NCBI GenBank assembly: GCA_031459535.1
Contig: JAVKIJ010000013.1
Span: 1-51,063 of the forward strand
From: Candidatus Fervidifonticultor quintus
GTDB lineage: Bacteria; Sysuimicrobiota; Sysuimicrobiia; Sysuimicrobiales; Humicultoraceae
Direction: 5' to 3'
Length of the DNA: 51,063 nt
Below the pieces are notes generated by a model. That model was not told where the DNA came from. It did no database searches and saw only the letters and a list, made by a program, of their open reading frames with translations. The position numbers and the translations under genes are program-made. Positions 10,649 to 15,128 of the stretch are shown piece after piece (position 1 is the first letter of the stretch; the number at the start of each line of letters is the position of its first letter).

Positions 10649-11218
10649 CTACAAGAGCCGCGCGGTCACGCAGCCTTCGACCACCTCGATGAGCGCCCCA
10701 CCGGTCTTTCCGTCGCCCATGGTGCAGTTGACGACCAACGTCCCCTCGACCTCAGCGATGCCCGGTGACTCATGGATGTGGCCGCAGGCGTGCGCCTTCG
10801 GGCGCACCCGTGCCAGGATCTCGCGCACCGTGTGGGACCCCACGTGCTGTCCCGTGAATGCCACGTCCAGCGTGCCGCGCGGTGGCTCGTGTGTCACCAG
10901 CAGGTCGCATGGCCCTCCTACCTCGGGCCCGCCGAACGACACGCCGCCGATCACCACAGGCTCTGCCCCCGCCAGCCGGCCTCTGCGCGTGATGGTCTCT
11001 GCGGCGCGGGCATCATCCATGTTGCCGGGAACCGCGAGCACCGGCACGGGGAGGACGTGGAGGAGATCGAGGGCCTCTTCTCCCCGGCCCAGGTGGGTCA
11101 GGTCGCCGGGTAGCAGGACGACATCGGGGTGGTGCTCGGCGACCAGGGCTCGCACGCGCGCGATGCGCTCGGGACGGCCGTGGATGTCGGCGCAGGCCAG
11201 CACCCGCAGCCCGGCCAT
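10649..11218 (-). CDS. Calcineurin-like metallophosphoesterase
   Basis: ADIHG, PGDLT, PGNMD, THEPP, GHIHE. Confidence 0.9.
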   Translation of the reverse strand: MAGLRVLACADIHGRPERIARVRALVAEHHPDVVLLPGDLTHLGRGEEALDLLHVLPVPVLAVPGNMDDARAAETITRRGRLAGAEPVVIGGVSFGGPEVGGPCDLLVTHEPPRGTLDVAFTGQHVGSHTVREILARVRPKAHACGHIHESPGIAEVEGTLVVNCTMGDGKTGGALIEVVEGCVTARLL

Positions 11219-11222
11219 GCCC

Positions 11223-11750
11223 CTAACCCTCCGATGTCTGCGACGACCCGGACGACCCGGTCGCCACGTGACGCCGGTAGGCCTCGCGCACGAGGCGCCA
11301 GGCCTCGCCCGCTCCAGCCCACCCGTAGATCTCCACCGCCTTCTCCTCGAGGGTCTTGTACGTCGTGAAAAAGTGTTCGATCTCCTTGAGAAAGTGCGGC
11401 GGCACATGGTCGAGGTCGGCCACGCCGTCGAAGCGGGGGTCGCCGAGGGGCACCGCCAGGATCTTCTGATCCCGGCCCTTCTCGTCCCGCATATCCAGCA
11501 CCCCGATGGGTCGCACCTCCACCAGGCAGCCCGGGAAGGTGGGTTCATAGACGAAGATCAACACGTCCAGATGGTCGCCGTCTTCGGCCATGGTATCCAG
11601 CAGGAAGCCGTAGTCTGCGGGATAGTGCAGCGGCGAGTACAGCACGCGATCTAGGCGGATGCCTCCGTGCGCCGGGTCGATCTCGTACTTGTTGCGGCTG
11701 CCCCGCGGTACCTCCACTTGTGCCAGCAACGCCCGCGGCTGGTCGCTCAT
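11223..11750 (-). CDS. ppa: Family I inorganic pyrophosphatase
   Basis: RNKYE, LDRVLY, YPADYG, DGDHLDV, DQKIL, HFFTTYK. Confidence 0.95.
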   Translation of the reverse strand: MSDQPRALLAQVEVPRGSRNKYEIDPAHGGIRLDRVLYSPLHYPADYGFLLDTMAEDGDHLDVLIFVYEPTFPGCLVEVRPIGVLDMRDEKGRDQKILAVPLGDPRFDGVADLDHVPPHFLKEIEHFFTTYKTLEEKAVEIYGWAGAGEAWRLVREAYRRHVATGSSGSSQTSEG

Positions 11751-12148
11751 GTCGCCTCTCCTGTCAGGTCCTTGATGAGGTCCCGGATCCGCTGCGCAAG
11801 CCCGTCGCGCACCTCGCGGTAGAAGTCCATCTCTTGCCCGGCCGGATTGGGGATCGGCCAGTGCAGGCTGGGGATGCCCGGGGTGACCGGGCAGGCCTCT
11901 TCGGCACACAGCCCAATCACCAGCCGCACGTCGGGATTCATGGCCTGCGCCATGGACTTCGGCCGGTGCCGTTCAATATCGACGCCGATCTCGCGCATGA
12001 CGGCCACGGCCTCTCTGCGCACCGCCTCCCCAGGGTCCGTCCCCGCGGACCGCGCGGCCCAACCCGCCGGCGCCAGGGCGTTGAAGAGCCCCTCGGCCAT
12101 CTGCGAGCGGGCGGTGTTGTGGTGTCAAACGAACAGGACGTGGCGCAC
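11747..12148 (-). CDS. arsC: Thioredoxin-type arsenate reductase (LMW-PTP fold), predicted selenoprotein with Sec at codon 8
   Basis: GAGGAGG SD then GTG CGC CAC GTC CTG TTC GTT TGA CAC CAC AAC ACC GCC CGC TCG CAG ATG GCC GAG = MRHVLFV[U]HHNTARSQMAE; also SAGT, LCAEEACP, LHW. Confidence 0.85.
12088..12112 (-). promoter_or_regulatory. Candidate bacterial SECIS hairpin downstream of the in-frame UGA
   Basis: mRNA GCCC-G-CUCG-C[AGAUG]G-C-CGAG-GGGC; apical loop starts about 22 nt after UGA with G at loop position 2. Confidence 0.6.
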
Positions 12149-12170: not shown

Positions 12171-12827
12171 CTACACATTCAGCTCGCGAAGTTCCCCGGT
12201 AGCGACGTAGATGACCCGTTCAGCCATGTTGGTGATGTGGTCGGCCGCGCGCTCGAGGTGCTGGGCAACGAGGAGTAGCTCCAGCGCCCGCGGGACCGTG
12301 GCGGGATCGCTGATCATGTAGGTGAGCAACTCCCGGAAGACCTGGCTGCGGAGGGCGTCCACCTCGTCATCCATTCTGGCGGCCGCTTCGGCCAGGGTCA
12401 CGTCACGGCTGAGGAACGCCTCGACGACCCGGTGCAGCATGTTCTGGACCAGGGCTTCCATCCGCGGGATGTCAATCAACGGCTTGAGCAACGGCTGATG
12501 GGCCAGCCGCTTCGCGGCCTTCGAGATACCCTCGGCGTGGTCGGCCATGCGCTCCAGGTCGATGGTGATGGCCAGCACGGCGGCAATGGTTCGCAGGTCG
12601 GAGGCCATGGGCTGCTGCAGGACCAGCAGGCGCATGTACCGGTTCTCCAGGTCCATGTGGAGAGCGTCGATGCCGTCGTCGTCGCGAATGACCTGATCGG
12701 CTCGGGCCGGGTCCCGGTTCCGCAGCGCTTCGACGGACGCGTGGATGGCTGCCCCTGCTATTCGCGCCATGTGCAGCACGTCCGCCTGCAGTGCCTCGAG
12801 TTCTCGGACAAAGAGGTCTCTCGTCAC
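12171..12827 (-). CDS. phoU: Phosphate signalling protein PhoU
   Basis: DDDGID, LQQPMASDLR, DLERMADHA, DDEVD, LERAADHITNMAERVIY. Confidence 0.96.
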   Translation of the reverse strand: MTRDLFVRELEALQADVLHMARIAGAAIHASVEALRNRDPARADQVIRDDDGIDALHMDLENRYMRLLVLQQPMASDLRTIAAVLAITIDLERMADHAEGISKAAKRLAHQPLLKPLIDIPRMEALVQNMLHRVVEAFLSRDVTLAEAAARMDDEVDALRSQVFRELLTYMISDPATVPRALELLLVAQHLERAADHITNMAERVIYVATGELRELNV

Positions 12828-12840
12828 GCCCGGTCCCGAC

Positions 12841-13779
12841 CTACCGGAGGTCGAGGCGGTACCCGATCCCCCGCACGGCCAGGATGCGCACGCCTCCGCG
12901 GGCCTCGACCTTCCTACGCAGCCAGCCCACGTGCGTATCCAGGGTCCGGGAGTCGCCGAAGTAGTCTTCGCCCCACACCTCGCGCAGGAGCCGCTCGCGC
13001 CGGACCACCTTGCCCTGGTGCCTGAGGAGGAGATGCAGCAGGCTGAACTCCTTTGCGGTAAGCGGAACCGGCTCGCCGGCCACCGTGGTCTCGTGACGCT
13101 CGGTGTCCATGACGAGGCGGCCAGCCACGAGCCGGTGATCGGCCCCGGTCCGCATGACGAGGCCTTCGAGGACGTTGGCGATGTCCTCGCACCGGTCGGT
13201 GCCGGTCTCGAGCATCTCGCAGATGTCTTTCCACTTGATGATTTCCCGGGCGTCACGCCGACTGGTGAACAGGGCCTCCAGGGCGTCCCGCAGCAGGTCG
13301 TCTCCGCGGTTCTCCAGGCGGTGCAGGGCACGGGTGTGGGAGAACACCTCGCGCCCGCTGCGCGCTTCCTCCAACGCCTGGCTGATCTCCCTGGCGCACT
13401 GCAGCATGACCTCGCCCAGCGCCCGCGCGGTGGGCAGGACGCGACGGATCCGGTGGATGGCCAACCGCGCGGCGGCCGCCTCGATGGCGTCCAGCACGTC
13501 GTCCAGGAATCCGGTCAGGGACTGCAGGGCTTCTCGCTCGCCGGGCGGACCGCCAAGGCGCGCCAGCGCCTCGAAGAGGTCCCGGGCGACCGCGTCGCCC
13601 TTGTGCTCCAGGTCGCGGACAGTCTGCCAGACGCCGTCGAAAGCCGCCCGGGCCTCCAACCCGGCCATCAGGGACTCGGCAGCGTCCAGAATGGCACGGG
13701 CCATCTCTTCGAGCAGCTCGAACTCTCGCTCGAGGACGGACGGAGGAGTGCTGGTGGAGAAGGCCCGAACATCAGCCAT
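12841..13779 (-). CDS. DUF47 (Pit accessory/PhoU-like) domain fused to an OmpR/PhoB-type winged-helix DNA-binding domain
   Basis: N-terminal LEHKGD, LDDVLD, LENRGD, IIKWKDICEMLETGTDRCED; C-terminal LTAKEFSLL, LLREVWG, SRTLDTHVGWLRRK, VRGIGYR. Confidence 0.88.
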   Translation of the reverse strand: MADVRAFSTSTPPSVLEREFELLEEMARAILDAAESLMAGLEARAAFDGVWQTVRDLEHKGDAVARDLFEALARLGGPPGEREALQSLTGFLDDVLDAIEAAAARLAIHRIRRVLPTARALGEVMLQCAREISQALEEARSGREVFSHTRALHRLENRGDDLLRDALEALFTSRRDAREIIKWKDICEMLETGTDRCEDIANVLEGLVMRTGADHRLVAGRLVMDTERHETTVAGEPVPLTAKEFSLLHLLLRHQGKVVRRERLLREVWGEDYFGDSRTLDTHVGWLRRKVEARGGVRILAVRGIGYRLDLR

Positions 13780-13816
13780 GCTGCATTGAGCATACCACGC
13801 CCGCGGCGCGGGCGCG

Positions 13817-14950
13817 CTAGCCGTAGAGCGGCAACGGGTGCGGTCGCAGCGCGTCGCCGATGCGGCGGCGAACGCCCTCAAAGACCTCCAGATCGTATTG
13901 CCCCACGAACGTGATGGCCTCGCCCCGGCGACCGGCGCGAGCCGTGCGTCCCACCCGGTGCACGTAGGTGTCCAGGTCTTCCGGCACGTCGTAGTTAATG
14001 ACGTGGGAGACATCGGGCAGGTCCAGACCCCGCGAGGCCACATTGGTGGCGACCAACACCCGGGCCTGCCCCGCGGCGAACGCCGCAAGGGCGCGTAGCC
14101 GGGCCCCCTGGGTCATGTCACCGTGCAGGACCTCGGCGTGCACCCCGCGCTCCCGCAGGACCTTCGCCAGGCGATCCACCCCCCGCCGCGTGCGCCGGAA
14201 GACCAGGGCCGACGGCACCTCGCCGCTGGTCAGCAGCAGCCGCAGCGCCCGCACCTTGTCCTGCTCGGCCACTTCCAGGAAGTACTGGGTGACGGTTTGG
14301 ACGGTCGGCGCTGGCGCCGCGATCCTGATCCAGACCGGGCGCCGCAGGTACCGGACCGCCAGGCTGGAGATGGCATCGGGCAGGGTCGCCGAGAAGAGCG
14401 CGGTCTGGCGGGCCGCCGGCGTCTGACGGATGATGGCCTCCACATCGGGCAGGAACCCCATGTCCAGCATCCGGTCGGCTTCGTCCAGCACCAGGAAGCG
14501 GATTGCGTCGAGGCGCACACTGCCGCGCCGCAGGTGGTCCAGCAGCCGGCCCGGTGTCGCCACAATCACTTGCACGCCCGCACGCAGCGACGCCAGCTGC
14601 CTTGCCATGGGCTGGCCGCCGTAGAGCGCGGCGGTGCGGAGACGCGATGTGGCCAGCCCGCGGACGACGTCCGAGATCTGGATGGCCAGTTCGCGGGTCG
14701 GGGCCAGGACCAGCGCGCCAGCAGCCCGCGCCCTGCGGTCGAGACGCTCGACCATGGGGATCGCGAAGGCGCCGGTCTTGCCTGAACCGGTCTGCGCCTG
14801 TCCGGCCACGTCGTGGCCGTCCAGCAGCGCGGGAATCGCCTGCGACTGAATCGGGGTGGGTTCGGTCCACCCCAGAGCTGAGATGGCCCGGAGGGTTTCC
14901 GGGCTCAAGGCGAAGCCGCCGAACGCCGCTTCGCGCGTCGAGGTAGAAAT
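13817..14950 (-). CDS. DEAD-box RNA helicase (probable ATT start)
   Basis: PTPIQ, AQTGSGKT, PTRELA, TPGRL, DEAD, SAT, HGD, RGLD, HRVGRTAR. Confidence 0.93.
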   Translation of the reverse strand: MSTSTREAAFGGFALSPETLRAISALGWTEPTPIQSQAIPALLDGHDVAGQAQTGSGKTGAFAIPMVERLDRRARAAGALVLAPTRELAIQISDVVRGLATSRLRTAALYGGQPMARQLASLRAGVQVIVATPGRLLDHLRRGSVRLDAIRFLVLDEADRMLDMGFLPDVEAIIRQTPAARQTALFSATLPDAISSLAVRYLRRPVWIRIAAPAPTVQTVTQYFLEVAEQDKVRALRLLLTSGEVPSALVFRRTRRGVDRLAKVLRERGVHAEVLHGDMTQGARLRALAAFAAGQARVLVATNVASRGLDLPDVSHVINYDVPEDLDTYVHRVGRTARAGRRGEAITFVGQYDLEVFEGVRRRIGDALRPHPLPLYG

Positions 14951-15128
14951 AGACTTGACCTCCGCTGGACCCGGGAGCCCCGGGTCGAATGTGAGCCGGC
15001 ATCCTGCGCGTGCCCGCCGGTCCACCCGACCCTGGTGAGGACGAACGCTGGGACACACGAAACGGGCGGTGTCATCACGTCAACATCGCCCGTCCCACAA
15101 CGCAACTATGTCGACTACAAACAGGCTA

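Follow-up and report, generated by a model that had tools for sequence, protein, structure and literature searches.

A DUF47 domain fused to a PhoB-type winged helix in Sysuimicrobiota, a candidate one-component regulator of phosphate-transport genes

Results

Architecture of the fusion protein

The window analyzed in this work is the whole of contig JAVKIJ010000013.1 (51,063 nucleotides) of Candidatus Fervidifonticultor quintus, a member of the phylum Sysuimicrobiota (CSP1-3). Its minus strand carries a gene, hereafter termed the fusion, in which a DUF47 domain is joined to an OmpR/PhoB-type winged helix. An earlier note on this DNA had described a continuous 312-residue open reading frame (ORF) of this composition without giving its strand, and had proposed that it encodes a phosphate- or metal-sensing transcription factor that could bypass PhoR-PhoB. 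The gene and its two domains are located as follows.

12841..13779, minus strand: coding sequence of the DUF47-winged-helix fusion, 312 amino acids plus stop, with ATG at 13779-13777 and TAG at 12843-12841; 100% self-match in its own genome
13153..13734, minus strand: DUF47/PhoU_div (PitR-type) six-helix-bundle domain, residues 16-209, placed by Pfam, profile, fold, and alignment with 14 stand-alone DUF47 proteins
12850..13143, minus strand: OmpR/PhoB-type winged-helix DNA-binding domain, residues ~213-310, with the recognition helix RTLDTHVGWLRRK and a VWG..GD loop

Both domains were recognized by Pfam. The N-terminal region matched PF01865 (PhoU_div/DUF47) over residues 16-209 with an E value of 3.6e-14 and 53.1 bits (cut-off 24.4; 54 bits in the genome scan), and the C-terminal region matched PF00486 (Trans_reg_C) over residues 235-309 with an E value of 1.1e-27 and 96.3 bits (cut-off 26.2). 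No Pfam match at E ≤ 0.1 was obtained for the PF00072 receiver, which with its phospho-acceptor aspartate marks the response regulators, or for the PF01895 PhoU repeat, two of which are present in the product of the downstream gene phoU2. The NCBIfam response-regulator models aligned to the fusion by their C-terminal effector halves only, from approximately model position 107-157 onward. The best of these models, TIGR02154 for PhoB, aligned over positions 128-226 with 71.3 bits and fell short of the equivalog cut-off of 296.2, a threshold that is passed by none of the 94 phylum genomes and by only 2 of 14 control genomes. All of the motifs quoted in the earlier note were located in the translation: EHKGD at 58-62, DDVLD at 93-97, ENRGD at 156-160, and DRCED at 195-199, together with LTAKEF, VWG, RTLDTHVGWLRRK, and VRGIGY. 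Its statement that neither a receiver nor a kinase is present also held, since PhoB and PhoR model searches of the contig at E ≤ 1e-10 found no kinase or OmpR-type receiver and Pfam identified no kinase, cognate or otherwise, among 19 neighboring ORFs.

The AlphaFold2 model of the fusion, for which 25 relatives were aligned, had a mean pLDDT of 88.3 and a pTM of 0.78, and consists of six long helices (residues 17-211) followed by a four-stranded β-sheet and winged helix (residues 216-311). Using Foldseek, the model was matched to the DUF47 structure 3l39 (TM 0.86, rmsd 2.3 over 199 columns) and to the PhoB effector domain 1gxp (TM 0.84), and a family profile matched 3l39 at E 1.8e-29 and RegX3 of M. 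tuberculosis at E 1.9e-28. An ESM Atlas search returned winged-helix clusters only, with scores of ≤0.81. Because the 25 relatives are 62-77% identical to the fusion, with a mean column identity of 65% and invariant columns in both domains, the reading frame is far beyond what chance would produce.

The DUF47 domain and its relatives

Residues E58, D62, D93, D97, E156, D160, and D195 are invariant in an alignment of five fusions, 14 stand-alone DUF47 proteins, and the separate Pit-linked DUF47 copy of the same genome. The closest stand-alone DUF47 relatives are 31-39% identical to the fusion, and in two of the three loci examined their gene immediately precedes that of a PHO4/Pit transporter; the Pit-linked copy (contig C90) shares only 20% identity with it. 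The S. aureus DUF47 protein, PitR, was shown experimentally to be an accessory regulator that controls PhoPR activity together with PitA, and the surveyed pitR genes nearly always adjoin pitA, the survey having gathered the single-domain architecture only (available text of the 2026 study, PMC13170248). The fusion resembles these PitR/DUF47 (YkaA-type) proteins in that its first 200 residues belong to the family by hidden Markov model, profile, and fold, with the acidic invariants kept. It differs from them in having two domains and in being linked to pst and phoU; in its own genome, it is neither a single-domain protein nor encoded next to pitA, its neighbors being a DEAD-box helicase gene and phoU, with pit on another contig.

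A second type of composite protein was also encountered. Proteins of ~450 residues that join two PhoU repeats (PF01895) to DUF47 (PF01865) are recurrent, with both domains present in all of the best 120 clusters retrieved (P0144 and relatives), among which the named proteins are mostly from Methylomirabilota/NC10. As in the fusion, DUF47 is covalently joined to a Pho signaling component in these proteins, but the partner is PhoU and not a DNA-binding domain. By Rosetta-stone logic, these proteins hint at a shared complex of PhoU and DUF47.

Size and distribution of the fusion family

Among 8000 candidates scored in a search of 5.8 billion proteins, 359 matched at E ≤ 0.001. All of the best 120 clusters contained both PF01865 and PF00486 and, the query itself apart, were 62-77% identical to the fusion; in the source databases, family members are labeled "DUF47 family protein" or "OmpR family regulator." When 1.84 billion representatives clustered at 50% identity were scanned exhaustively with HMMER, one full-length fusion representative (P0122, 320 residues) and fragments were found, and below P0122 there were only stand-alone DUF47 proteins (~205 residues, 30-40% identity) or ordinary response regulators. 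On the basis of this single full-length representative followed only by proteins of one type or the other, we conclude that the fusion family is one tight clade.

The fusion is present in 52 of the 94 species genomes of Sysuimicrobiota when matches of at least 58% identity are counted (a tally of 56 at E ≤ 1e-30 includes four genomes that match by stand-alone DUF47 only). It was found in 22 of 34 genomes of family f1, 17 of 22 of f3, 12 of 23 of f4, and the single genome of f6, and in none of the 12 genomes of f5 or the single genomes of f2 and f7. Within f4, it occurs in genera g23 (6/7) and g26 (6/7) and is absent from g21 (0/6). A misjoin of two genes, which would make the fusion unique to this assembly and which the earlier note had raised as a concern, is ruled out by the at least 120 clusters that share the architecture together with these 52 genomes. 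A term search of the main text of the paper that describes the phylum (PMC11604079) found no mention there of pst, PhoU, or regulators.

Linkage of the fusion to pst and phoU in relatives

Related loci were collected at a fusion identity of at least 55% (41 loci, a few of which share an assembly and one of which, L038, is essentially the window itself). By tblastn, pst or phoU lies within 4 kb of the fusion in 34 of the 41, and in 35 after addition of a PstS-type protein recognized by Pfam in L054; the weak match in L056 was confirmed by Pfam. The gene for the phosphate-binding protein, pstS, is directly downstream of the fusion, within 700 nt and on the same strand, in 23 loci, and phoU is directly downstream in six. 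The usual order in relatives, on one strand, is helicase, fusion, pstS-C-A-B, and phoU.

In three of these relatives (L040, L073, and L051), pstSCAB is situated between the fusion and phoU, at a place where the window has only 13 nt (12828-12840). The phoU2 gene of the window is orthologous (56-76% identity) to the phoU at the end of the pstSCAB-phoU operon that is linked to the fusion in relatives. The fusion-linked pst operon therefore appears to be lost, and loss of pstSCAB from this lineage is the simplest reading. One pst operon with its own phoU is retained in the genome, on contig C54. According to the ORF calls, the permease ORFs of that operon (C54:24962-28851, locus L116) are unusually long, 757 residues for the PstC-like and 539 residues for the PstA-like protein, and the BPD_transp_1 domain is found at the C-terminal end only of each.

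Repeat arrays in the pstS promoters

The spacers between the fusion and pstS contain four to six tandem 11-bp units with the core CTT(C/G)AC (CTTSAC) just upstream of a -10 hexamer. When scored for five phased CTTSAC units, 19 of 23 spacers reached 22 or more out of 30, compared with 0.09% of 1150 shuffles (mean 15.2, SD 1.3) and 1 of 31 control regions upstream of the fusion. In 10 of these 23, the start of a unit precedes a TA(C/G)G(C/G)T hexamer by exactly 16 nt, an arrangement with ~10 nt between core and -10 and with no -35 element. Repeats that stand in place of the -35 element near the -10 hexamer are the geometry of activator-dependent PhoB promoters.

A weight matrix derived from the relatives only was then applied to the 3.1-Mb genome of the organism itself, where two four-unit arrays scored at least 18 bits; none did so in the shuffled genome. 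The better array (29.5 bits) is on contig C54, where it precedes pstS by 130 nt. The other, at 22.1 bits, is located on contig C84 at ~31969 (minus strand; locus L119), just downstream of an OmpR-type regulator-kinase pair, and is followed by a 250-residue ORF that has no Pfam family. The link to phosphate made in the earlier note is strongly supported by the pst/phoU synteny and the repeat arrays; for metal sensing, nothing was found beyond the retained acidic residues.

Upstream of the fusion itself, 15 of 31 loci have an extended -10 sequence (TGnTAnnnT) at a distance of 15-19 nt from the ATG, compared with 0.26 expected from shuffles and with one and zero in two control windows. This conservation suggests that the fusion may have its own promoter and a nearly leaderless mRNA.

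Classical two-component systems in the phylum

The earlier note had also raised the question of phoR, phoB, and pit elsewhere in the genome. In addition to the pit gene with its own DUF47 on another contig, the genome encodes three full OmpR-type regulators (contigs C117, C84, and C53), each with a kinase, and none of these proteins passes the PhoB or PhoR cut-off. C117-type regulator-kinase pairs occur in all 94 genomes, with the regulator scoring ~250-265 bits to the PhoB model; scores of the kinase are 293-295 bits against PhoR and 362 bits against PnpS. When the models are ranked for this pair, YycF/WalK is best, followed by MtrA, PhoB, PnpS, and PhoR.

A different regulator-kinase pair adjoins pst in four of the five fusion-less genomes examined, the order being pstB, regulator, and kinase in G082 and G083, and regulator plus kinase upstream of pstSCAB-phoU in G059 and G062. 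A tree of 38 effector domains was constructed, with alternative placements compared by approximately unbiased (AU) tests. In this tree, clade B (support 98/94) comprises the pst-linked regulators and clade A the C117 type, and the fusion domains make up a clade of their own on a long stem. The C53 pair was rejected as a Pho system: its neighbors are Nramp, Usp, and signal peptidase genes, and neither pst nor phoU was found within ~6-8 kb of four clade-D pairs examined in relatives. The recognition helix reads RTLDTH(V/I)GWLR(R/K)K in the fusion and RTVDVHVSWLRRK in clade B, and a shortened loop past this helix is common to the fusion and clade B and does not occur in clades A, C, and D.

Clade-B orthologs (at least 59% identity) were found in 26 of the 94 genomes, all of them in f4 (g21-g25), f5, and f7, and lie within 11 kb of pstB in 15 of the 26. 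A phylum search with a clade-B protein found none in f1, f2, f3, f6, or g26, where the best matches were ≤58% identical; this 58-59% boundary is narrow, and for the members tested the assignment rests on the tree. The fusion and clade B are nearly complementary in distribution. Genus g23 alone has both, and its pst genes are linked to the regulator, with the fusion located elsewhere. Among the 65 genomes of clade-B-free lineages (two of which, G024 and G016, are flagged unpublished), 40 have the fusion and PstB, six the fusion only, one PstB only, and 18 neither, counts that are inflated by kinship and by the usual shared contig and in which co-absence is partly trivial; the PstB-only genome is 64% complete, and the set with neither includes genomes that are 95-96% complete. 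Over the whole phylum, PstB was not found at E ≤ 1e-90 in 26 of 94 genomes, several of them 95-96% complete, and part of the phylum may be without any Pst transporter. The bypass of PhoR-PhoB suggested in the earlier note gains support from the phyletic pattern, in which fusion lineages are without the pst-linked clade B apart from the one genus with both; this genome does encode the three ordinary OmpR-type pairs described above.

Genes surrounding the fusion

The features that flank the fusion in the window are the following.

13817..15058, minus strand: DEAD-box helicase, directly upstream of the fusion with a 37-nt gap, likewise in relatives L040, L044, L049, and L073
13789..13797, minus strand: putative extended -10 element TGGTATGCT, whose hexamer ends 9 nt before the fusion ATG
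12171..12827, minus strand: phoU2 (218 residues), GTG start 13 nt past the fusion stop; two PF01895 repeats; 211 bits to TIGR02135 (cut-off 130)
11747..12148, minus strand: low-molecular-weight protein tyrosine phosphatase (LMW-PTP)/ArsC-like gene in which an in-frame TGA (12127-12125) takes the place of the catalytic Cys codon in the CX5R loop; probable selenoprotein
11223..11750, minus strand: inorganic pyrophosphatase (ppa), whose ATG overlaps the ArsC-like stop as ATGA (11747-11750)
10649..11218, minus strand: calcineurin-like metallophosphoesterase, starting 4 nt past the pyrophosphatase stop

The recurrence of the helicase neighbor in the four relatives indicates that the helicase/fusion junction is no assembly artifact. 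On the other side, the fusion and the next four genes, the last of them that for the phosphoesterase, are tightly packed, with gaps of 13, 22, -4, and 4 nt, and the fusion is predicted to head an operon that also comprises phoU2, the selenocysteine (Sec)-ArsC-like gene, ppa, and the phosphoesterase gene. The phoU2/ArsC-like/ppa arrangement is restricted to L038, L042, L044, L072, and L089. Two low-depth contigs of RNA library X1, a hot-spring metatranscriptome that contained 47% of the sampled words, span 12643-12900 (the fusion/phoU2 junction) and 13362-14055 (the helicase/fusion junction); such contigs cannot show transcription, strand, or starts and were not used as evidence.

The ArsC-like gene has a GTG start at 12148 preceded by a GAGGAGG Shine-Dalgarno sequence, and its catalytic loop reads VLFV-TGA-HHNTARSQMAEG. 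The in-frame TGA is conserved in relatives L042, L072, and L089, and a tRNA-SeC gene is present on contig C130 of the same genome. The best NCBIfam match of the protein is the thioredoxin-type ArsC model, at 73 bits and below its cut-off. Probably, the gene encodes a selenocysteine-containing arsenate-reductase-like enzyme. A search for a SECIS-like hairpin after the TGA gave a fold that is no better than those of shuffles (z -0.91; 33 of 200 shuffles equal or better), and the search of the genome for SelB gave a partial match only (190.7 bits, cut-off 242).

Discussion

Proposed function of the fusion

We consider the fusion probably to be a one-component regulator of the Pho regulon that replaces PhoR-PhoB. 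The protein would be made from a constitutive-looking promoter, and its PitR/DUF47-type domain would stand where a receiver normally provides the input to a PhoB-type effector. The winged helix would bind the tandem 11-bp CTTSAC repeats, as candidate Pho boxes, at the -35 position of the pstS promoters; because a -35 element is missing there, the most likely outcome of binding would be activation of pst transcription under phosphate scarcity. The DUF47 domain would receive the phosphate-replete signal that PhoU-family proteins normally hand to PhoR, either through a ligand bound by the retained acidic residues or through contact with PhoU/PstB, the latter option being hinted at by the joining of PhoU and DUF47 in one polypeptide in Methylomirabilota. 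Kinase and phosphotransfer steps would thereby be cut out, and in this genome the likely target would be the remaining pst operon on contig C54. In this scheme, the sensed signal, the binding to DNA, and activation rather than repression are what we infer. The broader view, that in much of Sysuimicrobiota a single polypeptide has wholly replaced PhoR-PhoB, with a PitR/PhoU-superfamily domain reading phosphate status and gating a PhoB-type DNA-binding domain, is one that we hold tentatively, at somewhat less than even chances.

Several observations weigh against these proposals. The genome is 88.9% complete, and a PhoB missing from it is thus possible. The C117 pair resembles PhoB/PhoR/PnpS, although below every curated cut-off. 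In the best tree, the fusion winged helix groups with clade D (86/69), and the AU tests do not reject its placement with clade B (p 0.34) or with clade A (p 0.29), so that each of these three clades is a candidate donor of the winged helix. The genus g23 shows that the fusion and the pst-linked regulator are not strictly exclusive or equivalent, and the tally of fusion and PstB carries the weight of kinship noted above. Binding of the winged helix to the CTTSAC repeats is suggested by their adjacency, and the fusion operon of the window has no array in its vicinity that reaches 12 bits over three units of the weight matrix. Fusion-less genomes have CTTAAY-type repeats at pstS, from which it follows that another OmpR-type protein can bind such boxes. 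Finally, neither pst nor phoU was found in the available flanks of 6 of the 41 loci (L046, L048, L053, L057, L066, and L071), of which L057 and L071 have short downstream flanks.

The main rival explanation is that the fusion is a repressor or anti-activator, occupying the boxes or titrating a partner at phosphate excess, and that a classical C117-type regulator is the true Pho activator. We regard this as unlikely. Such a role would fit the negative regulation of Pho signaling by PhoU/PitR proteins in studied bacteria (available text of PMC13170248), the occurrence in all 94 genomes of the C117-type pair with its PhoB/PhoR/PnpS-like scores, and the coexistence of the fusion with the clade-B regulator in g23. 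The C117-type pairs, however, are never linked to pst in the loci examined and occur with or without pst, and the C117 regulator scores best to the YycF and MtrA models rather than to PhoB. The fusion also retains the VWG..GD loop, a conserved feature of activating OmpR/PhoB effectors, and boxes that replace the -35 element at a fixed 16-nt offset to the -10 hexamer have the geometry of activator-dependent promoters.

It is improbable that the fusion instead regulates its own downstream operon, or arsenate, pyrophosphate, or polyphosphate handling, with the pst linkage reflecting only a shared phosphate-metabolism neighborhood. The start of phoU2 13 nt downstream and the packed phosphatase genes that follow (gaps of 22, -4, and 4 nt) are in line with that idea, as are the missing pst neighbor in 6 of 41 loci and the next transporter in L066, which is of another ABC type. 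Nevertheless, the arrays are found between the fusion and pstS, with only 1 of 31 control regions upstream of the fusion having one, the window contains no array, and the phoU2/ArsC-like/ppa arrangement is confined to a few close relatives. We assign a very low probability to a constitutive DNA-binding factor in which DUF47 serves as an oligomerization or stability scaffold and senses no phosphate. OmpR-type domains must be brought together on direct repeats, helical bundles can do so, and we know of no ligand for DUF47. Against this, all of the acidic residues that are invariant in DUF47 proteins are kept across the fusion family, which would be needless in a scaffold, and a signaling role of DUF47/PitR has been demonstrated (available text of PMC13170248).

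Relation to known regulators and significance

The fusion is like PhoB, PhoP, and RegX3 in having a complete OmpR/PhoB effector domain, in the proximity of its gene to pst, and in a target-like promoter with 11-bp direct repeats replacing the -35 element. It differs from them in lacking the receiver, the phospho-acceptor, and a nearby cognate kinase and in scoring below the PhoB equivalog cut-off. Receiver-less one-component regulators of the OmpR family, such as ToxR, CadC, SARP/AfsR, EmbR, and HilA, likewise place a winged helix under a non-receiver domain. Those proteins carry the winged helix at the N terminus, coupled to membrane/periplasmic, BTAD, or FHA modules, whereas that of the fusion is C-terminal as in response regulators; to our knowledge, none of them has a PhoU-superfamily domain. 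In the archaeal SpoVT/AbrB-PhoU regulators, a PhoU-superfamily signaling domain is fused directly to a DNA-binding domain (available text of PMC7325993). The logic is analogous to that of the fusion, but the archaeal DNA-binding fold is AbrB and N-terminal, and the signaling part consists of PF01895 repeats and not PF01865. In a literature search from which most subscription journals and the supplements were absent, we encountered neither a described DUF47-Trans_reg_C protein nor a Pho regulon controlled by such a protein. Both domains and receiver-less OmpR-type regulators are known already; the combination of DUF47 with a winged helix is, as far as this search shows, the new part.

The field has yet to establish how PhoU-family proteins (PhoU and PitR) sense phosphate flux and how they relay the signal to PhoR. 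If the broader view of outright replacement of PhoR-PhoB is true, the fusion would be the first bacterial case of a PhoU-type signal wired straight to DNA binding, and it would offer a minimal two-part system, protein plus repeat DNA, for finding what PhoU-family domains sense. Assays with the fusion would need neither kinase nor phosphotransfer, and possibly no transporter, such that the dependence of DNA binding on a ligand or partner could be measured with a single recombinant protein of a thermophile lineage and a defined repeat array. The current database labels, "DUF47 family protein" and "OmpR family regulator," hide this likely role. The fusion would also illustrate how, at a conserved regulon, a one-component regulator has displaced a two-component system; the genus g23, having both, could be an intermediate.

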